A DNA stretch of 64,000 nucleotides from a plasmid. The notes below the pieces were generated by a model, which was given only the letters and a program-made list of their open reading frames with translations, ran no database searches and was not told where the DNA came from. Both the position numbers and the translations under genes were made by a program. The DNA lies in sequence record NZ_CP069398.1. One strand, written 5' to 3'. Within the stretch, counting starts at the first letter, position 1. Every line of letters starts with the position of its first letter. Positions 2,584 through 28,530 of the stretch are shown piece after piece.

Positions 2584-3158
2584 AATTAATGATTGTAGAA
2601 GATGATCCTGTTTGGATGCAGTGTATAAGTGATTATATAGAAAAAGAGAATGATATTATTGTTGTTAAACAAGCTTACAACAAAGAAGAAGCCTTACAAG
2701 TTGATTATAATAATATTGATGTAGTTTTATTGGATTTAACGTTATTAAAAGATGAGGGTGACGAAGAAAACCTAAGTGGTCTTGAAGTCGCTAGGCATTT
2801 ATACAAAAAAGGTTTAAAGAAAACTATTATGCTAACATCTTGGGATGAAAAGGATATTATACTTGAATGCTTTGATACAGGGGTTGTTAATTACTTAACA
2901 AAAACATCTTATAGAGATATCCCTGACGCTATTAGAGAGGCGTTTAGAGGAAAAGTTAGCCTCCATGCCGATGTCACAAATGTATTAGTTGGAGAGTTAA
3001 GGAAAGAAAGAAAAGTAAAGATATTAACACCAACAGAACGTGAAGTTTATACCTTAAGGGAACAAGGATTAAATAAATCACAAATTGCTGACAAATTATA
3101 TAAATCTGTCGAGACAATAAAAAGACAATTAAGAATTATAAAAAGCAAAATGGAGTGA
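2571..3158 (+). CDS. response regulator with REC domain and LuxR/NarL-type HTH
   Basis: The N-terminus has MIVEDD...VVLLDLTL with an acidic pocket and phospho-acceptor Asp. The C-terminus has LTPTEREVYTLREQGLNKSQIADKLYKSVETIKRQL, a LuxR-type HTH. Its start overlaps the kinase stop, suggesting translational coupling. Confidence 0.8.
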   Translation: MDKIKLMIVEDDPVWMQCISDYIEKENDIIVVKQAYNKEEALQVDYNNIDVVLLDLTLLKDEGDEENLSGLEVARHLYKKGLKKTIMLTSWDEKDIILECFDTGVVNYLTKTSYRDIPDAIREAFRGKVSLHADVTNVLVGELRKERKVKILTPTEREVYTLREQGLNKSQIADKLYKSVETIKRQLRIIKSKME

Positions 3159-10472: not shown

Positions 10473-13283
10473 ATGAAGGATGAGGAAATTCTTAAAAAGC
10501 TACGTGAGTTTTCAGAGTACTTAGATGTTGGAAATATCGTCACCTATATGTTACGGAAAGTTGGATGGGCGTGTATTCAACTTCTTTCGTTTCTAGTGGA
10601 TGGATTGGAAGGAATTACAGATAGTATTTTAGGAATTAAGACATTTTTTAATTCACCTGAAATCCAAGATTTTATTACCAAGATTCAACCTTTTTTATAT
10701 GTATTACTGGCTTTTTCCTTTTTGTATATTGGCTACATGTTGATTATTCAGAAGAAAGTCAATCGTGAACAAATTATGATTAACATTTTTATTTCGATGG
10801 CAGTCTTACTTTTATTAAACACAAGTATGTTAAAGGCAGATAAATTCACTGACCAAGCCATTGAAGCTGTTGATTTAAATGAAAAAGGTACCGTAAGTGA
10901 AAAGATAATTAAAAGTAACATAACAGATGTAGCGCAATTCGATCTTACGAAATGGAAAAGTCCCAAATTAAAAGAACCAAATAAAGTGCCACAAAAAAAT
11001 ATTATGATGATTGATATTACGGAAAAAATTGATGATAAGTTTAAAGTAAATAAAAAAGATACTCTATCAGATGAAGGCCAAAAAATACTCACAAATAAAG
11101 CAGATATTACACCTGATGGAAAAGAAGGATTAGTTGAATTGAATAATGGATGGTTTGATTTCTTTCCAGAACTCTATTACCGATGGTCATGGAACTTCTG
11201 GACAATTGCGGTTTCCCTTTTTGTTATAGGGATGACGTTGTTATTTACCTCTATTAAATTAGCAAAGTTGTGCTTTGAGCTAGGATTTAACTCCATTTTA
11301 GCCCAAATTGTTGCGCCTGCCGATGTAGCAGATGGGCAGAAGTTAAAAGCCGTTTTAAAAAATATCCTGAATACATTCCTTGTAACGATTATGATCTTTA
11401 TATCTATGAAGGTCTATTTGATGGGAACCGTCTTTATTAGCGATAAGCTAGAAGGTATTCCATACCTGATCGCATTGATCGCCTTTAGTATTGCTGTTGT
11501 AGATGGGCCTGTAATGTGTGAACGTCTCTTTGGCATCGATGCCGGACTCAAAAGTGGTTGGGGCGCTCTGGCAGGAGGTTTTGCGATGGCAAAAGGACTT
11601 GAAAGTAGTATTGGCATGATGGGCAGAACCTTAAAAGGAGGAGCCAATCTTGCAAAGGGTGTTGGTAATGTAGGAAAAGGTCTTGGTAGTGGTGCTCTTC
11701 AGACAGCAGCAGGAGTTGGAGGGCTTGGAAAAGGATTAGCTACACAAGGAAATAAGGAAAAACAACCAGCATTGCATGAAGAAATGAAAAAGGCAGGAAT
11801 GGCAGGTGAGAAAGGAAACGTTGCTTCTAAAGGTCAAAACGCAGGAAATGAGCAGAAAGCTCAACAACAGGGATTATCCTCTACTGAAAAACAAGAGGGG
11901 GGCAAAAATGCTGAAGGAAATTCTTCAGAAGGAAAAGGATCAGGACAAGGTACATCTCTACAAGATGAAATGCAAGCAGCAGGTGTTTCTACTGATAGTC
12001 AGGGATCAACTTCCTCTGTAGAAGGTGGAAATACATCTCTACATGATGAAATGCAGGCTTCTGGTTATGGTGAAAGTGCAACTGAAGGTACTGGATCTTC
12101 CGTAGAGGGTGGAAGTGCTTCTCTACATGATGAAATGCAGGCTTCTGGCTATAGTGAAGGTGCAACTGAAGGTACTGGATCTTCTGTAGAAGGTGGAAGT
12201 GCTTCTCTACATGATGAAATGCAGGCTTCTGGTCAGAGTGGAAGCACAAATGGAGGCAGCTCTTCTGTAGGAAAGGCAAGTGCTTCTCTACATGACGAAA
12301 TGCAGACTTCTGGTCAGAGTGGAAGCACAAATGAAGGCAGCTCTTCTGTAGGAAAGGCAAGTGCTCCTCTTCATGGTGAAATGCAAGCCTCTGGTCAGAG
12401 TGGAAGCACAAATGGAGGCAGCTCTTCTGTAGGAAAGGCAAGTGCTCCTCTTCATGGTGAAATGCAAGCCTCTGGTCAAAGTGGAAGCACAAATGGAGGT
12501 AGCTCTTCTGTAGGAAAGGCAAGTGCTCCTCTTCATGGTGAAATGCAAGCCTCTGGTCAAAGTGGAAGCACAAATGGAGGTAGCTCTTCTGTAGGGAGTG
12601 CAAGTACGCCTGTTCATGAAGAAATTCAAACTTCCGGTTACGGCGGAAGTACAAGTGAAGGCAGCTCTTCTGTAGGAAGTGTGAGCACGCCCGTTTATGA
12701 AGAAATCCAAACTTCCGGTTACGGTGGAAGTACAAGTGAAGGCAGCTCTTCTGTAGGAAGTGTGAGCACGCCTGTTCATGAAGAAATCCAAACTTCCGGT
12801 TACGGTGGAAGTACAAGTGAAGGTAGCTCTTCTGTAGGAAGTGTGAGTACGCCTGTTCGTGAAGAAATTCAAACTTCCGGTTACGGTGGAAGTACAAGCG
12901 AAGGCGGATCTTCTGTAGAAAGTGTAAGCTACCCTACACCAACAAGAGAACCTTCTGTTTCTATGCCGACAGGGATGGATCAAGCACAAGCACAAGTGGC
13001 AGCTACACAGGAACCTCGACAAGGAAAACAACGGATTGAAAAAGACACAGTTCCTACTTCAACAGACGATATTCCAATGCCAGAACAGAACCGGATAGAA
13101 ACACGCAATATTGCACAAGTGGTAAAAGATAACTTTAAGGGAGGGGTAGGAAAGGTAAAAGAACGTATTGATAATTCGCAAACAATCCATAAAACAAAAC
13201 GTTCTTATCAAATTGGACGAAATACAGGGCGAGATTTACGAAACCTTGGATCAAAGAAACGAAATAAACCAGAAGAGAAGTAA
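10473..13283 (+). CDS. VirB6-like polytopic T4SS channel protein (ConG/TcpH/Orf15-like) with a Gly-rich and tandem-repeat C-terminal extension
   Basis: The first ~430 aa carry at least 6 TM helices. They are followed by a Gly/Lys-rich segment, about 12 tandem ~27-aa S/G/T-rich repeats and a basic tail. Position matches the gene order of Gram-positive (MPF_FA-type) transfer operons. Confidence 0.65.
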   Translation: MKDEEILKKLREFSEYLDVGNIVTYMLRKVGWACIQLLSFLVDGLEGITDSILGIKTFFNSPEIQDFITKIQPFLYVLLAFSFLYIGYMLIIQKKVNREQIMINIFISMAVLLLLNTSMLKADKFTDQAIEAVDLNEKGTVSEKIIKSNITDVAQFDLTKWKSPKLKEPNKVPQKNIMMIDITEKIDDKFKVNKKDTLSDEGQKILTNKADITPDGKEGLVELNNGWFDFFPELYYRWSWNFWTIAVSLFVIGMTLLFTSIKLAKLCFELGFNSILAQIVAPADVADGQKLKAVLKNILNTFLVTIMIFISMKVYLMGTVFISDKLEGIPYLIALIAFSIAVVDGPVMCERLFGIDAGLKSGWGALAGGFAMAKGLESSIGMMGRTLKGGANLAKGVGNVGKGLGSGALQTAAGVGGLGKGLATQGNKEKQPALHEEMKKAGMAGEKGNVASKGQNAGNEQKAQQQGLSSTEKQEGGKNAEGNSSEGKGSGQGTSLQDEMQAAGVSTDSQGSTSSVEGGNTSLHDEMQASGYGESATEGTGSSVEGGSASLHDEMQASGYSEGATEGTGSSVEGGSASLHDEMQASGQSGSTNGGSSSVGKASASLHDEMQTSGQSGSTNEGSSSVGKASAPLHGEMQASGQSGSTNGGSSSVGKASAPLHGEMQASGQSGSTNGGSSSVGKASAPLHGEMQASGQSGSTNGGSSSVGSASTPVHEEIQTSGYGGSTSEGSSSVGSVSTPVYEEIQTSGYGGSTSEGSSSVGSVSTPVHEEIQTSGYGGSTSEGSSSVGSVSTPVREEIQTSGYGGSTSEGGSSVESVSYPTPTREPSVSMPTGMDQAQAQVAATQEPRQGKQRIEKDTVPTSTDDIPMPEQNRIETRNIAQVVKDNFKGGVGKVKERIDNSQTIHKTKRSYQIGRNTGRDLRNLGSKKRNKPEEK
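11950..12935. repeat. 81-bp in-frame tandem repeats (~12 copies, three subfamilies) inside the VirB6-like gene
   Basis: Exact 81-bp periodicity, for example CTTCATGGTGAAATGCAAGCC at 12367, 12448 and 12529. The encoded unit is LH(D/G)EMQASG(Q/Y)SGSTNGGSSSVGKASAP. Long minus-strand ORFs across this region are repeat artefacts. Confidence 0.9.
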
Positions 13284-16297: not shown

Positions 16298-17410
16298 TTG
16301 CATATCGTTTTACAGCTCATTCCAAAGAAATATTTGATTGGAGGCACGTTGATCCTGTTAGGATTATCGGGCCTCTTAATCATGAGTACAATTGTAGCCA
16401 TTACAGGTGAATTTGAAAAAGATAGTCAACAAAATGAGGTAACAGAGATTGAAGGCGGAGGCATTGGTGTAGGAACGGCTAATGTGTCACCAGAGGTCAT
16501 GAAGTATCAACCCTTGCTTGAAAAGTACGCACAAAAACATGGGTTAGATGCTTCGTATGTGCCAATTATGATGGCACTTATGATGCAAGAAAGTGGAGGA
16601 AGAGGCAACGATCCAATGCAAAGCAGTGAGTCTTATTGTGGATCAGTTGGGTGTATTTCTATCCCTGAATTATCGGTCGATAAAGGAGTTTTACATTTTA
16701 AAAGTGTCCTAGAAAAGGCTCATTATGATTTGAAACTTTGCCTTCAGTCGTACAATTTTGGCGGTGGATTTATCAATTATGTCATGAAAAATGGAGGCAA
16801 ATATACACCAGAGCTAGCAATCTCTTTTTCACAATTGCAATATCAAAAGGTAAAGCATACAGGAAATTATCACTGTGTGCGTCCTGAAATGGTTCCTTAT
16901 TCCGCCTGTTATGGCGACGCGAAGTATGTCGATGCGGTACTGAAATATTATACAGGAACGATCACAGCTGACGGAAAACCGGCTGCTCCTGCGAGTGGTG
17001 GAAGTGGCGGTAAATCAGGTGTGAAAGTAATTGACGCAGGCAAAACGTTGATTGGTAAAACACGTTATGTCTTTGGTGGAGGACGATCTCAATCTGATAT
17101 TAACGCAGGACGTTTTGATTGTTCAAGTTTCGTCAGATGGGCATTCGAACAGGTAGGAATGAATGTTGGTCCAATGTCAGGCGTAACAACCGACACACTC
17201 AAAACACAAGGGCAAGCAATCAATCCAAAAGACATGAAGCCTGGGGATGTGGTGTTTTTTGATACCTATAAAATAGACGGTCACGTTGGGATATACGTCG
17301 GCAATAATCAGTTTTTAGGCTGCCAAGGAAAAACAGGTGTAGCCATCGCAAGTATGGCAAAAGGAACGTATTTTGGTGAACGATTCAATGGAAGAGTAAA
17401 ACGATTTTAA
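16298..17410 (+). CDS. bifunctional cell-wall hydrolase (lytic transglycosylase/lysozyme-like plus NlpC/P60 endopeptidase; CwlT-like)
   Basis: The N-terminal signal anchor is followed by the MQESGG motif of lytic transglycosylases. After a Gly/Ser linker, the C-terminus has an NlpC/P60 Cys-His signature (DCSSFVRWAF...GHVGIYVG). Confidence 0.75.
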   Translation: MHIVLQLIPKKYLIGGTLILLGLSGLLIMSTIVAITGEFEKDSQQNEVTEIEGGGIGVGTANVSPEVMKYQPLLEKYAQKHGLDASYVPIMMALMMQESGGRGNDPMQSSESYCGSVGCISIPELSVDKGVLHFKSVLEKAHYDLKLCLQSYNFGGGFINYVMKNGGKYTPELAISFSQLQYQKVKHTGNYHCVRPEMVPYSACYGDAKYVDAVLKYYTGTITADGKPAAPASGGSGGKSGVKVIDAGKTLIGKTRYVFGGGRSQSDINAGRFDCSSFVRWAFEQVGMNVGPMSGVTTDTLKTQGQAINPKDMKPGDVVFFDTYKIDGHVGIYVGNNQFLGCQGKTGVAIASMAKGTYFGERFNGRVKRF

Positions 17411-17479: not shown

Positions 17480-19050
17480 AAAAGCATCACGAAACTAGAC
17501 CAGTAACGAATGTTATTTACTGGAAATTAATTGAAAGGTAGCGATGACAAGTTTTATGTCATATTTTCACGCCCCTTTCTGGCGTAAAGAGTTGGTGACT
17601 GCGTAGTAGCGCATCCACCAATCGCACGAGTTTTCTTGCGGTTAGAACGAGTGCACGTTTGTGTTGATGTTTTGGTACTTCACTGTACTTTTTCACGTAG
17701 TAATCCCGGTAATCCGGAACTTGCCTTCGTACGGAGTTGGCGGCTTCAACTAAGTAATATCGCAAGTAGTGGTTACCGTTACGTGATAGGGACGTGTCTT
17801 CGGCAGTAAAGCGCCCAGACTGATGCTTTCGCCAGTATAGACCTGCGTATTTCGCTACTTTAGTTTCATCATCAAACCGGTCTATTTGGCCAATTTCAGC
17901 TATGATACCTGCAGCGAATACGGGACCAATTCCAGGGATGGATTCAAGCGTGTGTGTCAATCCAGCCATCAGTTTTTTGATCGCTTTATCAATTTCTTTT
18001 ATCTGCTTTTGGAAGGTGCGAATGACCTCGATCGAGGTCCCTAGTATTACATCCATAGAATCTTCCACTACTTTGTCCAAGCGATAAGAAGATCGCACGG
18101 CTTTCTGAATGGAGGTTGCCACACATTTCGGGTCACCAAATCGGTTTTTCCCTTTCTCTTGAAGGAACGCTGCCAGTTCCTCCAGTGGTAGGTGGGCTAG
18201 TTCTTCCAAGCTGTATTTCTCTAAGAAAAGCTCCATCATTGCGTTACCGAAGACTGAGGAGTCTACTTCTTGAGAGAAAGTATTACACTTATAGCTTAGG
18301 TGTTGAAGAAAATGCTGCTTTTCTTTCGTCATCATACGGATGAGCTGGTAACGGGACCGAGTCAGTTGTTGTAAGGCCACGTATTGGCTTTCTTTGACCA
18401 CTGACATTTGGTTACGTCCAAAACGTAAGTAATCCGCAATGACAAAGGCATCGATTTCATCTGTTTTGTTCATATCCGAATAGCTTTTCTTAAAATTAGC
18501 TATTTGTTTAGGGTTCATGACAAACACCTTGGCACCGAAGACTTTTAAGTCTTCATCATGATGGAGAAACATCGACGGGTGAAAGCTATAGACCGATGTA
18601 GATTCTAAGCCAATCTTTAAGACGTCAATCTCTTGATCGTCTATGCAGTGTAATAAACGTTCTTTAAGCAACGTCGCGCCTGGTAAGTCATTGGTGACGG
18701 TAAAGGCGTTCAGCTTTTCTCCTTCACCATTTAAAATGCATACTTTCATATCAAACGAACTTACATCTAAACCAACAAATAATCTCACGGGAGAGACCTC
18801 CTTTCGATTTAGAATCACTTGGCATTTCCTTGGACGTCTCGAGATATCTCTAGTGTGTACGCCGACCAACAACCTCGTGTATCAGAGCTTCCCTGCATTC
18901 GAAAGCCGCCATAGAGCTACTACCCTCTAGGTTCAAATGACAGGCTGCTCAGCCTGCGAGTAGGGAGTCCCGCGCGTTCACTGAGAAACAGTCTTATATT
19001 GTGGTTAATCCACAGGAGAAAGAAGAATTGTCCCAAATGATCCTATGATC
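17480..19050 (-). mobile_element. IS110-family insertion sequence (boundaries approximate)
   Basis: A transposase gene with an approximately 250-bp GC-richer 5' leader. IS110 elements lack terminal inverted repeats, so the ends are inferred only from compositional change. Confidence 0.6.
17559..18788 (-). CDS. IS110-family transposase
   Basis: The N-terminal VGLDVS...KVCIL motif is DEDD-like. The C-terminus IPGIGPVFAAGIIAEIGQIDRFDDETKVAKYAGL matches the Transposase_20 helix-hairpin-helix region. The likely GTG start at 18788 lies 8 nt after AAAGGAGG. Confidence 0.8.
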   Translation of the reverse strand: MRLFVGLDVSSFDMKVCILNGEGEKLNAFTVTNDLPGATLLKERLLHCIDDQEIDVLKIGLESTSVYSFHPSMFLHHDEDLKVFGAKVFVMNPKQIANFKKSYSDMNKTDEIDAFVIADYLRFGRNQMSVVKESQYVALQQLTRSRYQLIRMMTKEKQHFLQHLSYKCNTFSQEVDSSVFGNAMMELFLEKYSLEELAHLPLEELAAFLQEKGKNRFGDPKCVATSIQKAVRSSYRLDKVVEDSMDVILGTSIEVIRTFQKQIKEIDKAIKKLMAGLTHTLESIPGIGPVFAAGIIAEIGQIDRFDDETKVAKYAGLYWRKHQSGRFTAEDTSLSRNGNHYLRYYLVEAANSVRRQVPDYRDYYVKKYSEVPKHQHKRALVLTARKLVRLVDALLRSHQLFTPERGVKI

Positions 19051-19751: not shown

Positions 19752-20648
19752 GTGGAGCAGATGGCATTTAAGAAGCAATTTGAAGATTATCGATTTAATT
19801 TAAATCGCAATCGGTCATGGAAGTATACAGCAATGTTGATCTTTTTCTTTATCGGTTTTTTATCCTTACTGACATCAAAAATCTATTTAAAAACGGAAGA
19901 TCCTTTGTATCATACCAAAACCTATGAGGCAGTTTCTTCTAACATAACAGGAACCGTAACCATTGAGAATCGTGTGTATCATCCGGCTAATGGCTCACTG
20001 GATATGGTCATCAAAATGGATCAAACAGATGAAGAAGAAGTAAGCTTTGTTGCACAAGAAAAAGCGAATCCAAACATCAAATTACCTGTTCATTTATTGT
20101 ATGAAGATGATGGCTATTATGTGGTAAGAATCAGCGATCTATCTCCAAATTGGGAAGCACTTGCCTTTGATCTCTATCAAGAAAATGAAGAAAAAGAAAC
20201 CGTAAACGTAGATGATGTAACGAGTGATTCAGAAACAGATTCAACAGAGGAAATAGATGCTCATGCGTTAATTACAACGCTCTATTCTGACCAACGAAAA
20301 ACGAAAAGTGAAGAAGGAAAAGGAACAAAAACCAAACAAGAATATGCGCTTTTAGTTAATGAGTTAGAAAAAGATTTTGTCAAAAAGAAAATGAAAAACT
20401 ATGAAAAAGCAATCACAGTAGAGGCCAAACATAAGCACCAAACGCAACAAGAAATGAACGAATTACAACGTGATATGAAGTACCAAGTGAATGAGGAAAA
20501 AGCCGATACGGAATCAAAAATTGCAATGAAAAAGGATGCCATTCAGTCGAGTGATGAAAGCATTCAGCTCTATGAAGATGAACAAAAAAGTTTACAAGAA
20601 AAGCTCCAAAAGTTGAATGAAAAGCAACAGGATTTAGCCATGAAGTGA
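19752..20648 (+). CDS. membrane-anchored coiled-coil protein, hypothetical (transfer region)
   Basis: An N-terminal TM helix and an acidic, coiled-coil C-terminus. The start overlaps the previous stop. Confidence 0.4.
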   Translation: MEQMAFKKQFEDYRFNLNRNRSWKYTAMLIFFFIGFLSLLTSKIYLKTEDPLYHTKTYEAVSSNITGTVTIENRVYHPANGSLDMVIKMDQTDEEEVSFVAQEKANPNIKLPVHLLYEDDGYYVVRISDLSPNWEALAFDLYQENEEKETVNVDDVTSDSETDSTEEIDAHALITTLYSDQRKTKSEEGKGTKTKQEYALLVNELEKDFVKKKMKNYEKAITVEAKHKHQTQQEMNELQRDMKYQVNEEKADTESKIAMKKDAIQSSDESIQLYEDEQKSLQEKLQKLNEKQQDLAMK

Positions 20649-20649
20649 A

Positions 20650-20880
20650 AAAACACAGGGGGACGCAAAGGGGACATGGCTCAAAAACAGGGGGACATAA
20701 AGGGGACATCGGGATTTTAAAAGGGGACGTAAAAGGGACGTACACCCAAAAAAAGGGGACGTAAAGGGGACATTAAGCGACTTTCTTTGATATCACGGTT
20801 TTGCTAGGCTCTGCCTAGCCTATCACACCCTGTGATAGCAAAAACCCCTTATGCTCTTCTCTCTTTTATAGTGGGGAACC
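20650..20880. promoter_or_regulatory. candidate oriT / relaxosome assembly region (iteron array plus palindromes)
   Basis: Eight direct copies of GGGGAC(R)T are spaced 11, 21, 11, 21... bp apart over 20655-20775. Next come the palindromes CTAGGCTCTGCCTAG at 20804-20818 and TATCACACCCTGTGATA at 20821-20837. The region lies directly upstream of the RHH accessory gene and the relaxase. Confidence 0.5.
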
Positions 20881-20907
20881 ACAATTTACAGGAAAGGAAC
20901 GAATGTT

Positions 20908-21165
20908 ATGGATATTCTTTTACGAGATATTGATCCAACTGCCGTAAAAAAAATAGATGAGATTGCAAAAGAAAAAAAGATTTCTCGTCAAGAATTCTTA
21001 AAAGGTCAGGTTGAAACGCTGGCTGTTTTTCAAGAACAAAAAGTTCGTGAAGCAGAACTCGAAAATATCATCTATAAAAATATAAAGATGATGGAAAAAT
21101 GTGCAGTGGCAATTGAAACAATCAATGGATTTATTCGAGATATGACGGGGGAAGATGAGGAATGA
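20908..21165 (+). CDS. small relaxosome accessory protein candidate (ribbon-helix-helix-like)
   Basis: An 85-aa basic/acidic protein immediately upstream of, and overlapping, the relaxase gene. Confidence 0.4.
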   Translation: MDILLRDIDPTAVKKIDEIAKEKKISRQEFLKGQVETLAVFQEQKVREAELENIIYKNIKMMEKCAVAIETINGFIRDMTGEDEE

Positions 21166-22358
21166 GTACGCCTTCTGTTATTCCAGGCGTGGTGTTGAAA
21201 ACAAAATTTGTTACATCCGATAAAAAGGCTTTTCAAGATTATGTTGATTATGTAGATCGTGATGATGCGAAAAAAGAACAGGAAGCCCACGAGAAACTAT
21301 TTACTCTTTATCAAGATTATATGGATAACCCTGATAAGGCATCTTCTTTGTTCACCCACCAATCGAATCAATTGAATGACGAGGAGAAAAAGCAATTAAA
21401 AAAGTTGTTTGAAAAAGCGCAGAAAAATAACAGTATTATGTGGCAAGATGTTATCACATTTCATAATCCTTGGCTCCAAGAAAATGGTTTATACGATGCT
21501 GATACTCATACAGTGGATGAGAAAAAATTAATGGATATTACCCGTCAGTCTATGAAGGAAATGCTTAAAAGGGAAAGGTTAAATGAGTCGGCTGTTTGGT
21601 CAGCTGCCATTCACTACAATACGGGAAACATTCATATTCATATTGCGACAGTAGAACCACAACCTACTCGTGAACGAGGCAAAAGAAAGCCTAAAACGTT
21701 GGATGCGATGAAGTCAACAGTCGTGAATCAAATTTTAAATCGAGGTGAGCAGCACCAGAAAATAAATGAGTTAATTCGAAAGGATATGGTCGGAAAAAAG
21801 AAGCAGGATTCTTCATTAAGGTGGAAGAATCGTGACATTCAACCATTGTTTCTACAAATCTATAATCATCTTCCAGAAGATAAAAGGCAGTGGCAATATA
21901 GTTACCGAACATTAAAACCAATGAAGCCATTTATTGATGTGTTGAGTCAAAAATATATTGAAAAGTATCATCGTAATGAGTACCAACAATTACTTGGAAA
22001 ATTAGATAAGGAAGTAGAGGAATTAAAGAAAGCCTATGGAGAAGGAAAGGTTGATGAGAAACGATATAAGGACTATAAGCAAACGAAAATTGATGATCTT
22101 TATAAGCGAATGGGCAATGCTTTCTTAAAAGAAATGAAAGATTATGATAAGCAGCAGCAACAGATTAAAAGAATGATAGAAAGTAAGAAACAATCAAAAC
22201 GTCCTGCAAGTTTTAACCAAAAGGTCTCTATGCATTTTGCATTAAAAAAGATGGAGCGAGCGTTTAAATCAGAATATGAAAGTTGGAAAAACCAACAACA
22301 TTATGAACGATTACAAAAAGAAATTGAACATAATCGTCAGGAAGAGAGGAGTTATTAA
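21162..22358 (+). CDS. MOBP/MobA-type conjugative relaxase
   Basis: Motif III is HYNTGNIHIHIATV, a 3-His HxDxxxxHxH-type. The N-terminal relaxase domain is followed by a Lys/Glu-rich C-terminus. Confidence 0.7.
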   Translation: MSTPSVIPGVVLKTKFVTSDKKAFQDYVDYVDRDDAKKEQEAHEKLFTLYQDYMDNPDKASSLFTHQSNQLNDEEKKQLKKLFEKAQKNNSIMWQDVITFHNPWLQENGLYDADTHTVDEKKLMDITRQSMKEMLKRERLNESAVWSAAIHYNTGNIHIHIATVEPQPTRERGKRKPKTLDAMKSTVVNQILNRGEQHQKINELIRKDMVGKKKQDSSLRWKNRDIQPLFLQIYNHLPEDKRQWQYSYRTLKPMKPFIDVLSQKYIEKYHRNEYQQLLGKLDKEVEELKKAYGEGKVDEKRYKDYKQTKIDDLYKRMGNAFLKEMKDYDKQQQQIKRMIESKKQSKRPASFNQKVSMHFALKKMERAFKSEYESWKNQQHYERLQKEIEHNRQEERSY

Positions 22359-22793
22359 ATGAATAAACAACGTATGAAATTATCACTGGATGAGGAAACA
22401 AAACAATATATTCAAGCGTATATGGAAGAAAATAATATCGGATTTACGGGTGAAGCTATTGCTCAAATTTGTAAGGAACATAAAGTTGCTAAAAGTAATG
22501 AATGGTCGTTGCAATATATTTCGGAAGTGGTCAGCAATAACTTACATCAGGTTTTAAAAGATGAATTAACAAGGATTCGTCTTGGGGCAAATAGTGCTGA
22601 TAAAAACACACAAATTTTAATTGAATACATGAACGGTCTTTTCTTCCATCACGGTTTTGATGGATTAATGACAACCGATTTACAAGAGTTAGATAGCACA
22701 AAGGTTGCGAAGGAAGCTGTTGAGAAGCGTATTGCGAATCAACGTCAAAAACGGATTGATTGGGAAGAGTCCAAAGGGAAACAACCATCTTAA
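22359..22793 (+). CDS. hypothetical protein
   Basis: A 144-aa ORF tightly linked to the relaxase. Confidence 0.4.
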   Translation: MNKQRMKLSLDEETKQYIQAYMEENNIGFTGEAIAQICKEHKVAKSNEWSLQYISEVVSNNLHQVLKDELTRIRLGANSADKNTQILIEYMNGLFFHHGFDGLMTTDLQELDSTKVAKEAVEKRIANQRQKRIDWEESKGKQPS

Positions 22794-22843: not shown

Positions 22844-23119
22844 ATGTTTTTTAACAAAGATTTAGTGTTAGCTTCGATTAAAGCTGTAGGAGAGGATCAT
22901 GCCATTGTACAGTATCAAGACAAAGAAATAGAGGTGAATTTAAGTCCAGAAGAAGCGAAGGAGTTTCATCAATATGTGGTGCATCAAGAAAATATGTTGG
23001 TGCCAATGAATATTAAAACACAGAAGCTTTTTGTGGATTTAGAGGAACCTTGGTATGAACAAGAATTAGAAGAGCTTAAGGGGATCTCCTATCAAGAAGA
23101 GGGGGATGAAAATGAGTAA
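22844..23119 (+). CDS. hypothetical acidic protein
   Basis: A 91-aa ORF with AAAGGAGGAAG as RBS. Confidence 0.4.
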   Translation: MFFNKDLVLASIKAVGEDHAIVQYQDKEIEVNLSPEEAKEFHQYVVHQENMLVPMNIKTQKLFVDLEEPWYEQELEELKGISYQEEGDENE

Positions 23120-23798
23120 AACGTATGCGAAAAAATCTGTGGAAGATAAGCGTAAAGAGGTTGAAGAGTTAACGAAAGGGATGGAACAAAAAGTAGAGCA
23201 GCATTTTCATTCTGCCGATGAATTAAAAGACTATTTATCTTTTATGGGTAAGTTTTATCAATACTCCATGTCGAACACAGCTCTTATTCAAGAACAATTC
23301 TTTGGTGCTCAAGCTGTTGGCTCATTTAAGTTTTGGAAAGATAAAGGTTTTTCTGTTAATAAAGGGGAGAAAGGCATTAAGATTCTTGTGCCAAATAAAA
23401 CGGTTCCTAAATTTAAAGATGAAAATGGGAAATTAAAGTCCATTAATAAAGCCACTCCTCAAGAAAAGAAGCTAATTAAAGAGGGGAAAAAAGAAGTCAC
23501 TCAAGGCCGACTGTATTTTTCAGTCGGCCATACGTTTGATATTAGCCAGACGAATGCGAAAGCAAGTGATTTACCTAAGATATTCCCAAATCGTTGGTTA
23601 GAAGGCAACGTGGAGGACTACAAGGCGCTTCATAAAGGAATGGAAGCCATTGCCGAAAAGAATGGTATTTCCATCATTGCTCCTAAAGAAGAACTAGGCA
23701 GCGCAAAAGGCGTGTGTTATCCATTAACGAAGGAGGTTGCGTTAAATCCTCGTAACTCTGAACGTCAAAATGTAAAGACGCTTCTTCACGAAATGACT
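23106..23798 (+). CDS. ArdC-like protein (ssDNA-binding N-domain plus zincin metalloprotease), exon 1
   Basis: The ArdC-N-like motif is YQYSMSNTALIQEQ. The exon ends ...LLHEMT immediately before the intron 5' GTGCG at 23799. It ends in phase 0. Confidence 0.65.
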
Positions 23799-26388
23799 GT
23801 GCGTCCATAAGGATGTGTTTGGGATTGCTGTCGTAGCAAACAGCTGATGTGGTCATAACATCATAAGGTCAAAGACTTATTGATATTCTTAAATATCAAG
23901 ACACTCGTGGTGGGAAACCATCAGGGGGACAATAGCATGTCTATAAAGCCACAAGTTACTGGCGTGTTACAGTACGACTGGATGGCAAGACCAAAGTAAT
24001 AGACAAGGATGAAAGCTATACTGCTTAAATGATAGCCAGAGGGGTTATATCGTGGACCATAGTAAACAACACGTGAAATGCTATGCAAGTGGGGATTTCA
24101 ACGGATGCGTCATACGTTGAAATATGACCTCCCACTGACCAACATCGATAAGATGATAAATGGCGAAAGTCACATCCGATACTATTACAAGCTTCCCTGC
24201 ATAATCTAAATGGAGATTGTCTAAGTCAATAAGCCCTTACGGGCTATGTTCATTGGGAACTGAAAAATTGATATGACAACGGAGTCTTCGTACTAGTTTG
24301 AGATAGGGAAAGCCTATCACGCTAACATCAGATAACGCATGTTAGATCATAGCTGTGAAGCTAGGATGGCGAAGGAAGACAGTTAACTGAATCCAATATT
24401 ATAAGAAGAAGGAGCGAGAGGCTCTATGAGAAATCCTCAAGTGGTATTGGACAATCTAACGAGTAAGTCCAAGGATGAAAACTACAAGTATCAAAGAGTT
24501 TACAGAAACTTATACAATCCTGAGTTTTATCTTATGGCATATGATGAAATCTACCCTAACCCTGGTAACATGACTAAAGGGTCAGATAATAAAACAATCT
24601 ATGGCATGAGTATGAAGAGAATTACTAATATTATTGATTCTCTCAAGGACGAAAAGTATCAACCGACTCCAGTAAGAAGAACCTATATCCGCAAAAAACG
24701 TGGTAATGGCAAAAGGCCACTTGGTATTCCATCATTTGATGACAAACTGTTACAAACTGTAGTCAAATATATTCTGGAAAGTATTTATGAAAGTTCGTTC
24801 AGTAACAAATCCCATGGGTATCGGCCAAACAAAAGCTGTCATACGGCTATTAAGCAAATTGCTGACACATTTAATGGAGTAAAGTGGTTTATAGAAGGAG
24901 ACATAAAGGGCTTCTTTGATAACATAGACCATTCTATTTTAATTGATTTACTTCGCAAAAGAATAAAAGATGAAAAGTTCCTAAGGCTTATTTGGAAATT
25001 TCTTAAAGCAGGATATGTAGAGGACTGGAAATATAATAATTCATACAGTGGTGTGCCTCAAGGAGGGATTATTAGTCCTATCTTATCTAATATTTACCTT
25101 AACGAATTAGATAAATTCATCGAAGAATTCCAACATAAATTCAATAAAGGTAAAAATAAGGCACAAAACCTTGACTACAAAAAACTGCACGCAAAAAGTA
25201 TGCGTCTTAAAAAGAAATTAAAGGACAAAGTCGCTAAAGGAACTCTCAAAGAAGGCGAACGTGAAGAAATTATTGGTTATATCAAAGAAGCGAATAGTAG
25301 AAAAATGAAATTACCTTCAAAAGATCCTATGGATCAAAACTACAGAAGACTGAAATACGTCCGGTATGCGGACGATTGGCTAATTGGCATTATTGGCAGT
25401 AAGGAAGATGCGGTCAGAATCAAAAAAGAACTAACTGAGTTTATCAGGAACAAATTGAAACTTGAACTTTCACAAGAAAAGACACTTATTACAAACGGTA
25501 GGAAGTTTGCTAGATTTCTAGGCTATGACATTGCCATCAGCAGAAATCAACAACCAAAACCGACTTCAAGAACTGCAGGGGAACAAATGAAGGTTCTTTC
25601 ACGTTCTAACTCTGGAACAGTCTCCATTTACATGCCAAAAGAGGCTTGGGTTAGTAAACTTATAGAATATAGGGCTATAAAAATGGAGGGAGCTAACTGG
25701 AAACCAATGCATCGTAGGGTACTGGTCAATAACGATGATTTGGAGATTCTCACTCGTTATAACGCTGAAATTAGGGGCATGTACAACTATTATAGGCTAG
25801 CACTAAATGTAAGTGGACTCAACAAGTTTAAATATTTTATGGAATACAGTTTATACAAAACCTTTGCCAATAAATATAAAACATCTATAAGCAAAATAAA
25901 AAATAAATACTGCATTAACGGAGTCTTTGCGGTTAGATACAAAACGAAGAAGGATCATAGAACTCAATACTTGTATAATGATGGATTTAAACGAAATAAT
26001 TCTATAAAGACAGACCACATTAACACAGACCTGCCTATCAGTAAATTTGACTTTGGTAGAACTAGTCTCATTTCAAGGCTAAAGGCGGAACGATGTGAAT
26101 GGTGCCATAAAGAAAATGTTGAATTAGAAATTCATCATGTAAGAAAATTGAAGGACTTGAAAGGTAAAAAGCTATGGGAAAAAGCAATGATAGCCAGAAA
26201 CCGCAAGACAATAGCACTTTGTGCTTTAGGAAAAGGGAATGACTGTCATCGCAAACTCCATGCTGGACTGTTAGATTGAAGTAAGTTAATGGCGAGCCGT
26301 ATACATGGAGACGTGTACGTACGGTTCTGGGGGGGATGCTTGGGAACCTACCATAGTAATATGGCAAGGCACTGGGTATCTACCCTAC
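23799..26388 (+). mobile_element. group II intron (bacterial, ORF-containing)
   Basis: The 5' end is GTGCG. Domain V, GAGCCGTATACATGGAGACGTGTACGTACGGTTC at ~26294-26327, is a near-perfect match to the group II catalytic-hairpin consensus. An RT/maturase ORF lies in domain IV. Splicing at 23798/26389 restores an in-frame HEMTHAKLH (HExxHxxxH). Confidence 0.8.
24426..26279 (+). CDS. group II intron-encoded reverse transcriptase/maturase with C-terminal HNH endonuclease
   Basis: RT motifs are present, including YADD (VRYADDWLIG). The C-terminus has the maturase X domain and an HNH/Zn endonuclease-like CEWCH...HH...C...C..H region. Confidence 0.9.
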   Translation: MRNPQVVLDNLTSKSKDENYKYQRVYRNLYNPEFYLMAYDEIYPNPGNMTKGSDNKTIYGMSMKRITNIIDSLKDEKYQPTPVRRTYIRKKRGNGKRPLGIPSFDDKLLQTVVKYILESIYESSFSNKSHGYRPNKSCHTAIKQIADTFNGVKWFIEGDIKGFFDNIDHSILIDLLRKRIKDEKFLRLIWKFLKAGYVEDWKYNNSYSGVPQGGIISPILSNIYLNELDKFIEEFQHKFNKGKNKAQNLDYKKLHAKSMRLKKKLKDKVAKGTLKEGEREEIIGYIKEANSRKMKLPSKDPMDQNYRRLKYVRYADDWLIGIIGSKEDAVRIKKELTEFIRNKLKLELSQEKTLITNGRKFARFLGYDIAISRNQQPKPTSRTAGEQMKVLSRSNSGTVSIYMPKEAWVSKLIEYRAIKMEGANWKPMHRRVLVNNDDLEILTRYNAEIRGMYNYYRLALNVSGLNKFKYFMEYSLYKTFANKYKTSISKIKNKYCINGVFAVRYKTKKDHRTQYLYNDGFKRNNSIKTDHINTDLPISKFDFGRTSLISRLKAERCEWCHKENVELEIHHVRKLKDLKGKKLWEKAMIARNRKTIALCALGKGNDCHRKLHAGLLD

Positions 26389-27495: not shown

Positions 27496-28530
27496 ATGAT
27501 GAAAAAAATTACGTCTCTTTCAAATGGCCAATTTAAAACGTTTATTTCCGATAAACGAGAACTCAAGAAGTTTATGAAACACCCACAAAATGAAAAGATC
27601 GAGGCAGGTTGGGCAAATATCAGTGGTGAACAGCTGCAAGACATTCCTTCTGGTGCTGTTTACTTAACACAATCAGCTATAGGGGAAGAAAAACCGCAGG
27701 TTTTGTTTGTTTCCACCGATGAAAGAGGGCAAAAACAAGCCTATGAAAGTGAAGCAACACTTGATTTTTTAAAGAGTCATGATGTGAACCCTGTTTTAGA
27801 GAAAGGTCGAGAAACGCAGCTCAAAACGAGCTATATTACGTTTTTACAGGCTCATGATAAAGAGAAACCTCAAGATATTGATAGCATGTTAGCCCGTGTG
27901 AATGCAGAAAACGATTATGTCATGTTGAAATCAAGTGCCTTAAAGGAAAAGCAGTTCACCTCTGACCAATTGAAAGGTATGGAGAATGAGCTTTCTCATC
28001 AGTTTCAAGCACGTAAACAGACACAAGAAAAGGACCGATATCAAGAAGATTACAAACAAGAAGTACTAGAAGTTATGCAGCAGCCTAGCGAAGAAACACA
28101 GTATAAGCAGCTATTTAAACAAAGCTTGTTAGCCCAATTAGGCATATCAGATGAAAAAGATTCTTCTAAAGGAGTGAAAAAGGAAGCTGAATCAGAAAAG
28201 ACTCCTGTCGAAAAGCAGCTCAAGCAAGAAACACCTCAAGAGAAAGAGCAGCGTTTGGCCAAAATGAAGGAGTTTGAACAAAAGCATTCCTTTGATAAGG
28301 TGTACAAATTGAAAAAAGAAGTGCTGCAGGAATTAAAAGAGCTCAATTTGACTGATTCTCAACGTGAGAAATTAACCAAGCTTGAAAAGGCTTTAGACAC
28401 GGAGAAAAAGGATCATGACAAGCAGAAAAAAGAAGAGAAATCACAGAATGGATTTACGAAGTTTTTTGCACGGAATAGTGGAGCAAATTCTTCGAGAAAA
28501 CAGAAAGAGACACAAGAAATGGAACGTTAA
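27496..28530 (+). CDS. hypothetical coiled-coil protein
   Basis: GGAGG precedes the ATG at 27496. The C-terminal half is Lys/Glu/Gln-rich. Confidence 0.45.
   Translation: MMKKITSLSNGQFKTFISDKRELKKFMKHPQNEKIEAGWANISGEQLQDIPSGAVYLTQSAIGEEKPQVLFVSTDERGQKQAYESEATLDFLKSHDVNPVLEKGRETQLKTSYITFLQAHDKEKPQDIDSMLARVNAENDYVMLKSSALKEKQFTSDQLKGMENELSHQFQARKQTQEKDRYQEDYKQEVLEVMQQPSEETQYKQLFKQSLLAQLGISDEKDSSKGVKKEAESEKTPVEKQLKQETPQEKEQRLAKMKEFEQKHSFDKVYKLKKEVLQELKELNLTDSQREKLTKLEKALDTEKKDHDKQKKEEKSQNGFTKFFARNSGANSSRKQKETQEMER

Follow-up and report, generated by a model that had tools for sequence, protein, structure and literature searches.

A phased GGGAC repeat array in a putative pLS20-like origin of transfer on a Priestia megaterium plasmid

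Organization of the locus

We analysed 64,000 nucleotides (nt) of the plasmid sequence record NZ_CP069398.1; this whole stretch is called the window below. It comes from a large plasmid of Priestia megaterium, its best database match is pMLY91_4 (96% DNA identity), and the plasmids nearest to it are Priestia plasmids. The region of interest, 20649-20907, is in our interpretation the origin of transfer (oriT) of a pLS20-like conjugation module. It would be composed of three modules, namely a phased repeat (iteron) array, a pair of short sites, and a branched hairpin followed by a conserved core, which would be read by the accessory proteins Aux2 and Aux1 and by a MobL relaxase, respectively. 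Judged from sequence comparison, we assign to this interpretation a probability of about 0.72. The features of the locus are the following (aa, amino acids; ORF, open reading frame; RHH, ribbon-helix-helix):

19752-20648, plus strand: ORF of 298 aa, the stop codon of which is the 5' border of the oriT intergenic stretch
20654-20775, plus strand: iteron array; each of its four 32-bp units contains a direct pair of AAAGGGGACRT half-sites spaced by 11 bp
20789-20795, plus strand: GATATCA, ossA-type site in the left arm, equal to ossA49 of pWBG749; proposed distal site of the 85-aa RHH protein
20799-20843, plus strand: branched hairpin (three-way junction), recognized by inverted repeats and compensatory changes
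20799-20802 paired with 20840-20843, plus strand: outer stem of the branched hairpin
20803-20819, plus strand: hairpin 1, GCTAGGC-tct-GCCTAGC
20820-20838, plus strand: hairpin 2, CTATCACA-ccc-TGTGATAG
20834-20840, plus strand: GATAGCA, ossB-type site in the right arm of hairpin 2, equal to ossB49; proposed proximal site of the 85-aa RHH protein
20845-20858, plus strand: oriT core CCCCTTATGCTCTT, probable relaxase recognition and nick region
20908-21165, plus strand: aux1/smpO homologue encoding an 85-aa RHH relaxosome accessory protein (homology to pLS20 Aux1 and to SmpO45)
21162-22358, plus strand: MOB_L (MobP2) relaxase gene (Pfam MobL, NCBIfam MobP2, similarity to RelLS20)
22359-22793, plus strand: aux2 homologue encoding a 144-aa TraM-like accessory protein (similarity to 7NUV and to pLS20 Aux2)

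The DNA between the stop codon of the 298-aa ORF and the start of the 85-aa ORF (20649-20907) is non-coding, and a scan of 20300-21300 revealed neither a sigma-70-type promoter nor an intrinsic terminator. The order within the module is oriT-aux1-rel-aux2. Upstream of the oriT there are pLS20-like type IV secretion genes encoding VirD4, a protein of the pLS20_p028 family, VirB4 and a cell-wall hydrolase. A preliminary description of the region, made from the letters alone, had placed a small RHH-like gene and a MOBP relaxase directly downstream of the repeats. Both genes are present at these places; the oriT core (20845-20858) and the second accessory gene (22359-22793) were not mentioned in it. 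The relaxase matches Pfam MobL PF18555 (E 6e-115) and NCBIfam MobP2 NF041498 (E 1.5e-119), and is 39% identical to RelLS20 of pLS20 (E 1e-95). As a broad class MOBP, the type that MOB-suite gives to the relaxase on the plasmid with the closest match (96% DNA identity), can be accepted; more specifically, the relaxase belongs to MOB_L/MOB_MG.

The iteron array and its relatives

Eight copies of GGGAC start at positions 20660, 20671, 20692, 20703, 20724, 20735, 20756 and 20767 and span 20660-20771. Their spacings of 11, 21, 11, 21, 11, 21 and 11 bp correspond to four 32-bp units with two direct half-sites each, in agreement with the positions and the alternation initially described. The consensus of the eight copies is gaAAAGGGGACgTaa, or in an alternative form AAAGGGGAC(G/A)T. 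Within this consensus GGGAC does not vary; it is followed by G or A (four copies each) and then by T in seven of eight copies. GGGGAC is found in 7/8 copies, while the copy at 20735 has GGGAC only. Each core is preceded by a tract of three to seven A's (A3-A7) of varying length. At the background rate, approximately 0.04 GGGAC would be expected in 112 bp, which gives a Poisson P of ~2e-16 for at least eight copies and, after crude correction for windows and 5-mers, a P of ~3e-10 for the cluster. The plus strand of the window contains 31 GGGAC in total, and no other repeat array of this kind was found in the window. The phase drift amounts to 69 degrees over 107 bp (at 10.5 bp per turn), and the earlier statement that the copies lie on one face of the helix is a fair description.

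The geometry is retained in relatives, in which the half-sites of a pair are 11 bp apart, the units measure 32 bp, and the last half-site is located ~78 nt upstream of the core. In dozens of relatives this 11/21/32-bp scaffold is occupied by at least ten sequence families. Thus, the GGGAC family, introduced as unusual and well defined, is well defined but not unusual in kind. The following motifs were found (related loci are designated by L numbers):

GGGAC: Priestia and some loci of the B. cereus group
CAACA: L014, L016, L017, L018
GTGTACCTTGA: L015, L019, L053
GTGAGTGAGTC: L022, L024, L025, L028, L060
GTGAGTACTCAC: L021, L023, L029, L054
GTTAACAgtagGTTCACA: L002, L012
GACAC: L052
GCCTAT: L055
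GGGACA/TGTCCC, in both orientations: Lacticaseibacillus locus L073
CGGTAAAGTgtaTTTACCG, five copies at 32 bp: Clostridiales locus L080

The third TGTGCAT repeat of pLS20 is at the same frame position as a half-site of the scaffold. The GGGAC array is the counterpart of the accessory repeats AR1-AR3 of pWBG749 and of the TGTGCAT repeats of pLS20.

The branched hairpin and the oriT core

The two palindromes noticed downstream of the repeats are real and slightly longer than claimed (20803-20819 and 20820-20838). They had been taken for a nic-site hairpin. Our comparison shows that they belong to the branched hairpin of the MOB_L/MOB_MG family, and the nick is likely to fall within the conserved core, located 6 nt 3' of the hairpin. 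Five A's lie between hairpin 2 and the core.

The hairpin was analysed by a covariation test on an alignment of 52 distinct cores, comprising the outer TTTT/AAAA stem and the two hairpins. Pairing was found in 82% of the cells as compared to 70% in shuffled alignments, and double-sided changes numbered 106 as compared to 30.5, a value matched by none of 500 shuffles (0/500). The covariation score was 0.30, while controls in which the structure was slid along the alignment reached 0.09-0.23. Compensatory changes were seen in all three helices, and in pLS20-like loci the outer stem is inverted from TTTT/AAAA to AAAA/TTTT. Symmetric change would also be expected for inverted repeats that are bound by dimeric proteins. 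However, such repeats would hardly explain the outer stem, the arms of which are 37 nt apart.

The core CCCCTTATGCTCTT has one exact copy in the window. It is located on the coding strand, 317 bp ahead of the relaxase start. An alignment scan for the relaxase in one genome per species yielded 72 loci, and in ~62 of them the core was found on the coding strand with at most two mismatches, 300-1560 bp upstream of the relaxase gene. These loci are from Priestia, the B. cereus group, Halobacillus, Thalassobacillus, Listeria, Lysinibacillus, Clostridium, Paraclostridium and Lacticaseibacillus. At up to one mismatch the core is absent from the S. epidermidis and Mammaliicoccus loci L087 and L088, and therefore these two were left out of the comparison of accessory repeats and Aux2 in staphylococci. 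A BLAST search for distant relatives showed that ~20788-20859 is 80-90% conserved on many plasmids, among them 6-9-kb plasmids of B. thuringiensis, B. pumilus and B. anthracis, a Paenibacillus plasmid and a Clostridium plasmid, while the iterons are not conserved.

The same 14-mer is present without mismatch in the experimentally defined oriT of pLS20, where it is also preceded by two adjacent hairpins. Further, it includes the 11-nt sequence CTTATGCTCTT, which was described as the core of the pWBG749 family together with a predicted branched single-stranded DNA hairpin (inverted repeats IR1-IR3) located 5' of it (O'Brien 2015, PMC4652767). In pWBG749, nic was narrowed genetically to CCTTATGCTCTTACGG within this core (PMC4652767). 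A literature search for the 14-mer gave no match, and O'Brien 2015 was the sole relevant match for the 11-mer. In the searched passages of the pLS20 papers, we found no mention of the core or of the pWBG749 work.

With up to two mismatches, the core sequence has three matches in the window (0.41 expected). One of them is the inverted CCCCTTAAGCTCTT with one mismatch at 23070-23083 (minus strand), 2.2 kb downstream of the oriT core and within the ORF 22844-23119; L004 and L011 contain it as well. Since this sequence encodes EELKG, it may have arisen by chance. An inverted second relaxase site could bear on termination or recombination.

Aux1 and the sites flanking the hairpins

The 85-aa protein is 23% identical to Aux1 of pLS20 (E 8e-4). 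It matches the RHH VapB model NF050181 with an E value of 6e-10, which is below the cut-off of the model, and its homologue on plasmid pPmC-142-10 matches Pfam RHH_1. SmpO45 of pWBG731 in turn is found with an Aux1 profile (E 6e-16). SmpO is an RHH factor that is encoded between the oriT and the relaxase gene and binds the sites ossA and ossB (Yui Eto 2021, PMC8136818). These sites are GATATCA and GATAGCA in OT49 and TGGGGTCA in OT45, and a single SmpO change, F7K, switches the specificity (PMC8136818). Both OT49 sites are present in the window. The first is part of GATATCAC at 20789-20796, which also contains the third TATCAC copy mentioned in the preliminary description (20791-20796); in an alignment it matches by position the Aux1 site TGGTACCA of pLS20 (site from PMC5675868). 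The second, GATAGCA, shares its frame position (249) with ossB45 of pWBG731.

We classified 65 loci according to the arms around hairpin 1 and the residue at position 4 of Aux1; in seven of them the arms were of neither type. Lysine or arginine at this position occurs with CCC/GGG arms (48/48 loci) and a hydrophobic residue with (T)ATC arms (10/10 loci), i.e. the arm class follows residue 4 in all 58 classifiable loci. Both classes are found within Priestia, within the B. cereus group (L020 as opposed to the rest) and within Clostridium (L009 as opposed to L062). Residue 4 of Aux1 aligns with residue 7 of SmpO, and thus the arm rule matches the published F7K result. This categorical rule was used in place of a Mantel test of arm similarity against Aux1, which gave 0.13 after controlling for the relaxase. 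Finally, over 3.5 kb the identity between the window and L011 is 0.96-1.0, with the exception of 20750-20950, which contains the arms and the Aux1 N-terminus. Based on the SmpO homology, the residue-4 rule and this local difference, the 85-aa protein most likely binds GATATCA/GATAGCA and not the iterons.

In L002, on a P. flexa plasmid, aux1 (2849-3106) has an in-frame stop at codon 28, and GATATCA/GATAGCA are intact.

Aux2 and the iterons

The homologue of Aux2 is 30% identical to Aux2 of pLS20 (E 6e-11). Its residues 16-141 match PDB entry 7NUV (Aux2pLS20), the solved C-terminal domain of pLS20 Aux2 (E 2.6e-6 with the sequence alone, 3.3e-11 with a profile). The homology includes the C-terminal helical tetramerisation domain. 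Aux2pLS20 was described as a tetramer and as an analogue of TraM (PMC8829557), and in electrophoretic mobility shift assays (EMSA) pLS20 Aux2 shifts the repeat-bearing 5' half of the oriT (PMC5675868). The product of a 128-aa gene located after the relaxase gene of pWBG731 is found with the Aux2 profile (E 3e-14). Scans against Pfam and NCBIfam gave no match for Aux2, and hhalign detected no relationship between the Aux2 and Aux1 profiles. In the AlphaFold2 model, residues 1-11 are extended and helices comprise residues 12-25 and 30 onward, with a predicted local distance difference test (pLDDT) value of ~85 for residues 11-40; an RHH fold is predicted for the N-terminus. Among database homologues, the first 48 residues of Aux2 are exchanged as a block, with distinct types joined to C-termini that are nearly identical to that of the window.

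The iteron motif follows the predicted strand of Aux2 and not Aux1:

RMKL[SA][LI]: GGGAC
RRVFSI: CAACA
RRVLKL: GTGTACC
RMQITL and RRQVTM (outward R, Q and T in both): GTGAGT

Pairs of loci illustrate this. L015 and L016 have Aux1 in common and differ in the iteron family, while the window and L011 have the iterons in common and differ in Aux1. The window and L002 are 0.9-1.0 identical except for the iterons (0.40-0.46), a gene inserted at 21165, and 22335-22480 (0.56-0.78), which corresponds to the N-terminus of Aux2. We quantified the co-variation in 26 loci. Iteron similarity correlated with the Aux2 N-terminus with r 0.66 (0.52 when controlled for the relaxase) and with the Aux2 C-terminus with r 0.53 (0.28). 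For both the N-terminus and the C-terminus of Aux1 r was 0.45, and after the same control 0.08 and 0.01 remained, respectively.

In a forward test, four Aux2 types were chosen and their iteron classes were predicted before the loci were fetched. The GTTMACA class was predicted for the types of L093 and L091, and new classes for the types of L089/L090 and L094. As predicted, L093 (RRTISL) has GTTAACA/GTCAACA units, and its intact Aux1 has an N-terminus (MDILLRDID...) identical to that of the window, where the iterons are different. L091 (RRMISL) has TCAACA-type half-sites near the predicted class, judged on these half-sites. The other two predictions failed: L089/L090, with K at position 7 of Aux2, have GGGAC pairs, and L094, with M at this position, has GGTCAACA/GTCGACA pairs. 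Both outcomes agree with a residue-7 rule which was itself read off post hoc.

Many Priestia relatives contain an extra gene of 116-125 aa between aux1 and the relaxase gene. It was found in L002 (3103-3456), L003 (3081-3458), L012, L051, L089-L091 and L093 and is absent from the window, where the insertion point is at ~21165. The N-terminus of its product resembles Aux2 and its C-terminus is short and different; this gene complicates the assignment of iteron readers. Hybrid arrays exist in L003, L051, L089 and L090, from ~185 to 78 nt upstream of the core. They consist of two GGGAC pairs around a centre of ~60 bp without GGGAC but with GGGTCAAT and AATCAACC, and all loci with hybrid arrays have two Aux2-like proteins.

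Model and alternative explanations

According to our model, the TraM-like Aux2 homologue would bind the GGGAC half-sites, with one RHH dimer per half-site, and AAAGGGGACGT is the iteron DNA proposed as the target of an Aux2 N-domain dimer. Since Aux2 is a TraM-like tetramer and the 11-bp spacing in pED208 allows the two RHH dimers of a TraM tetramer to bind two motifs on one face (Wong 2011, PMC3159463), one tetramer could occupy each 32-bp unit, which would place four tetramers along one face of the A-tract-rich segment. This array would help the assembly of the relaxosome and perhaps link it to the coupling protein. Aux1 would bind GATATCA and GATAGCA beside the Aux2 tetramers, and the MobL relaxase would bind and nick at the branched hairpin and the core CCCCTTATGCTCTT, with a nick position suggested by comparison with relatives.

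It is tempting to go one step further and to speculate that MOB_L origins carry an address with two keys, of which Aux1 reads the core-side arms and Aux2 the iterons; both would be exchangeable and largely set by one strand residue each. We give this proposal an even chance. The key of Aux1 would be residue 4, with K/R specifying GGG arms and a hydrophobic residue ATC arms. That of Aux2 would be residue 7, with K specifying GGGAC, T/M/V specifying T(C/T)AACA, Q specifying GTGAGT, and N specifying CACAT/GACAC. Both modules would be swapped by recombination on nearly identical backbones, as cassettes of a protein domain together with its site. If so, the combination of Aux1 and Aux2 would define which of the numerous orphan oriT copies on co-resident Priestia/Bacillus plasmids are open to mobilisation by a particular conjugative plasmid.

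Several observations weigh against our interpretation. First, the RHH fold of the Aux2 N-terminus rests on prediction: the mean pLDDT of the Aux2 monomer is 65, and a Foldseek search of the model against the PDB gave nothing significant, although its top rows were RHH proteins (NikR, ParD, VapB, MatP). Second, the sequences used for the correlations are related, and thus permutation P values overstate their independence. Third, the downstream Aux2 of L012 has the GGGAC-type strand RMKLSL, yet its iterons are of the GTTMACA type. This locus fits only if its extra Aux2-like paralogue (RRMVSF, encoded between aux1 and rel) reads the iterons there. An additional paralogue (RRKISF) is encoded in L002 and L093 as well, so that the iteron reader is ambiguous wherever a paralogue occurs. 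Fourth, the essential accessory repeat in pWBG749 is only the one nearest to the core (PMC4652767). Fifth, counts of mismatches in the hairpin stems (16 G-T and 32 A-C, many of the A-C coming from a misaligned column) did not favour either strand as the functional one. Finally, the published nick of pLS20 is 40 nt downstream of the core and on the other (template) strand (PMC5313138), and the GC-rich repeat next to it has no counterpart in the window. In pLS20 itself (L010) the core CCCCTTATGCTCTT is at 27741-27754 and the published nick after 27794. We suggest that the pLS20 nick site deserves re-examination, as the core conserved throughout the family is 40 nt away from the published position.

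Alternatively, the array could be curved DNA phased by A-tracts, or a site for a host factor or for the C-terminal domain of the relaxase, and its match to Aux2 could have resulted from linked recombination. In line with this, A-tracts in helical phase occur in front of every GGGAC, a static bend was described for the pLS20 oriT (PMC5313138), and aux2 and the iterons are 1.6 kb apart, so that a joint exchange by chance is possible. However, it is GGGAC that is invariant and the A-tract lengths that vary. Moreover, between the swapped patches of the window and L002 the relaxase gene is 0.8-1.0 identical, i.e. there are two patches and not one block. The same DNA-facing Aux2 residues accompany the same motif in separate lineages, as seen with RMQITL and RRQVTM for GTGAGT and with T/M/V at position 7 for T(C/T)AACA, and the EMSA with pLS20 mentioned above also argues for binding of Aux2 to the repeat-bearing half. 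Thus, we consider this explanation unlikely.

The preliminary description had implied that the 85-aa RHH protein is the reader of the iterons, in which case Aux2 would play no part there. Its gene adjoins the array and RHH proteins often bind phased repeats. In addition, L002, which is without GGGAC iterons, also has the stop codon in the 85-aa gene. Against this, the 85-aa gene of L093 is intact and has the N-terminus of the window together with unrelated, GTTAACA-type iterons, while L011 has the iterons of the window and another Aux1 strand, MEIKIRYID. Like Aux1 proteins go along with unlike iterons in L015/L016, and the controlled iteron-Aux1 correlation is only 0.08 (N-terminal) or 0.01 (C-terminal). 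Furthermore, the SmpO targets GATATCA/GATAGCA (PMC8136818) are elsewhere in the window oriT, at 20789-20795 and 20834-20840. We therefore consider this assignment improbable.

A role of the iterons in a vegetative replication origin or in a ParR/parC-type partition centromere, for both of which helically phased direct repeats are typical (Rep-binding iterons and centromeres of RHH ParR), is highly improbable, as the array is within a conjugation operon with a transfer gene on one side and the relaxosome genes on the other, the annotation of ~26 kb surrounding the homologous locus of the closest plasmid includes neither a rep nor a par gene, position and period are those of the accessory repeats, the core-proximal one of which is needed for pWBG749 mobilisation (PMC4652767), and the array accompanies the oriT core on plasmids with differing replicons. 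Both readings were rejected on the gene context.

Other elements in the transfer region

The transfer region contains several other elements. An IS110-family transposase gene (17559-18872, minus strand; PF01548 and PF02371) separates the cell-wall hydrolase gene (16298-17410) from a 193-aa gene. In L002-L004 the hydrolase gene and the 193-aa gene are direct neighbours without IS110 between them. A group II intron is located at ~23811-26388, after a truncated ArdC-like ORF (23106-23810); it contains an ORF (24426-26279) with reverse transcriptase, maturase and HNH domains and a match to Rfam RF00029 at 26292-26388. In L093 the counterpart of the truncated ORF is an uninterrupted 745-aa protein with ArdC-N and peptidase M78 domains. 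Further group II introns of this kind are found within the hydrolase gene in L001 and L005. A 936-aa ORF of the transfer region (10473-13283) harbours an 81-bp tandem unit, repeated 10.9 times at 12037-12922 with 90% identity, which corresponds to 27-aa repeats. Finally, the contig L031, labelled Sphingomonas sp. PsM26 (an alphaproteobacterium), contains a relaxase fragment 96% identical to the relaxase of the window, probably as assembly contamination from a Priestia plasmid.

Significance

The identification of this putative oriT is of interest for several reasons. MobL relaxases are encoded in 1393 plasmid records of PLSDB, most commonly from Enterococcus, Bacillus, Listeria, Staphylococcus and Clostridium. 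In S. aureus, oriT copies of this type on non-conjugative plasmids explain much of the plasmid mobility (PMC4652767). The kind of origin is already known, and GGGAC is one of the sequence families found on a common scaffold. Our comparison adds that the 11/21/32-bp scaffold is strict and keeps a fixed distance to the core, and it provides comparative evidence for the reading of the accessory repeats by an Aux2/TraM-like protein, and hence for two independent, exchangeable specificity modules. If Aux2 reads the repeats, mobilisation groups in multi-plasmid strains of Priestia and the B. cereus group would be predictable from sequence. Furthermore, the descriptions of pLS20 and pWBG749 are unified as one architecture, which provides a single template for finding such origins. 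Among the pLS20 and pWBG749 papers compared, there was no mutual citation.

Orphan copies of the oriT were found on plasmids of P. megaterium QM B1551 that are typed as non-mobilizable (L083-L085), two inverted copies on each. In L083 (pBM700), and likewise in L085 (pBM500), the two core copies are ~1.9 kb apart on opposite strands, and in L084, a 29-kb plasmid, ~0.7 kb apart on opposite strands. Each orphan copy has iterons, arms, hairpins and core, and in those examined aux1 looks truncated or disrupted. One of the copies in L084 has a further iteron family, GTCGCCA. Pairs of oriT on the same strand are absent from staphylococcal plasmids (O'Brien 2015, PMC4652767). Small plasmids without a MobL relaxase but with the module of hairpin and core also exist and are candidates for mobilisation by a relaxase provided in trans. 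These are L006 (pPmC-142-10, 7.8 kb; core at 2451-2464, Aux1-like RHH gene at 2523-2786), L007 (pPZZ84, with its own AGTGAT repeats) and L008 (pBMB8291).

Comparison with known systems

Iterons of Rep proteins and ParR/parC centromeres resemble the array in that they are short, helically phased direct repeats for multimers of a plasmid protein, and ParR is also an RHH protein. Unlike them, the array of the window is linked to an oriT core and hairpins, and rep and par genes are missing from its immediate neighbourhood.

The F-like TraM-sbmA/TraY system is similar in combining an RHH domain, which is predicted for Aux2 of the window, with a helical tetramerisation domain. Short motifs, several of them at intervals of about one helical turn, are located 5' of nic, and a swap of the RHH domain alters the plasmid specificity (PMC3159463). 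However, there is no detectable sequence similarity between TraM and Aux2 of the window. The sbmA-C sites contain GANTC ~12 bp apart, bound by staggered tetramers, while the window has GGGAC at 11/21 bp and no GANTC. At sbmA the TraM tetramers sit on alternate motifs on opposite faces, whereas the half-sites of the window are all on one face. Also unlike TraM, Aux2pLS20 was not seen to bind the relaxase. Thus, the likeness to F-like TraM sites is one of mechanism only.

Much closer is pLS20 (Ramachandran 2017, PMC5313138; Miguel-Arribas 2017, PMC5675868; Crespo 2022, PMC8829557). It shares with the window a MOB_L relaxase (39% identity), homologues of Aux1 and Aux2, and a core identical over 14 nt with two adjacent hairpins ahead of it. 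Direct repeats are located in the 5' half of its oriT, the last one at an equal distance from the core, and an Aux1 site occupies the position of GATATCA. Unlike the regular array of eight in the window, pLS20 has three irregular TGTGCAT repeats (21 and 55 bp apart), to which binding of Aux2 is only proposed in the pLS20 papers. Its order is oriT-aux1-aux2-rel, with aux2 ahead of the relaxase gene, while aux2 comes after it in the window, and it has the GC-rich inverted repeat on the nick side, which the window is without. The pLS20 relaxase paper assigns pHTbeta and pGL5 to MOB_L and mentions neither pWBG749 nor the name MOB_MG. Both plasmids are also covered by the design of O'Brien 2015, which includes the S. 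aureus pWBG749 family, pMG2200, pHTbeta, pGL5 and pMC189 of B. thuringiensis (PMC4652767). Therefore, MOB_L and MOB_MG are one family. A literature search revealed no paper containing both 'pWBG749' and 'Aux2', and the protein reading the accessory repeats is not named in PMC4652767 or PMC8136818.

Differences from the pWBG749 family concern the relaxase, which is only ~37% identical to that of the window, and the spacing of the sites. pWBG731 has three units with inverted half-sites ~13 bp apart, while the window has four units with direct half-sites 11 bp apart, and the distance between ossA and ossB is 65 bp in pWBG731 and 45 bp in the window. Otherwise the architecture is shared. Accessory repeats (AR1-AR3) are located upstream, at least the core-proximal one of which is required for mobilisation (PMC4652767); they are followed by ossA, the branched hairpin, in which ossB is located in the right arm of the hairpin next to the core, and the core CTTATGCTCTT. 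The staphylococcal types OTSep and OT408 have differing accessory repeats. The gene order of pWBG731 (oriT, RHH gene, relaxase gene, Aux2-like gene) is that of the window, and its accessory-repeat half-sites, GTGTCAC, have the same 32-bp period. The window contains the exact OT49 sites of pWBG749, and the rule for the specificity residue is the same (SmpO residue 7, Aux1 residue 4). The initial reading of the region as an oriT, with accessory-protein repeats and hairpins ahead of the relaxosome genes, agrees with this homology to the oriTs of pLS20 and the pWBG749 family by position and sequence. The oriT of the window thus appears to be a member of the already described MOB_L (= MOB_MG, NCBI "MobP2") origin family.

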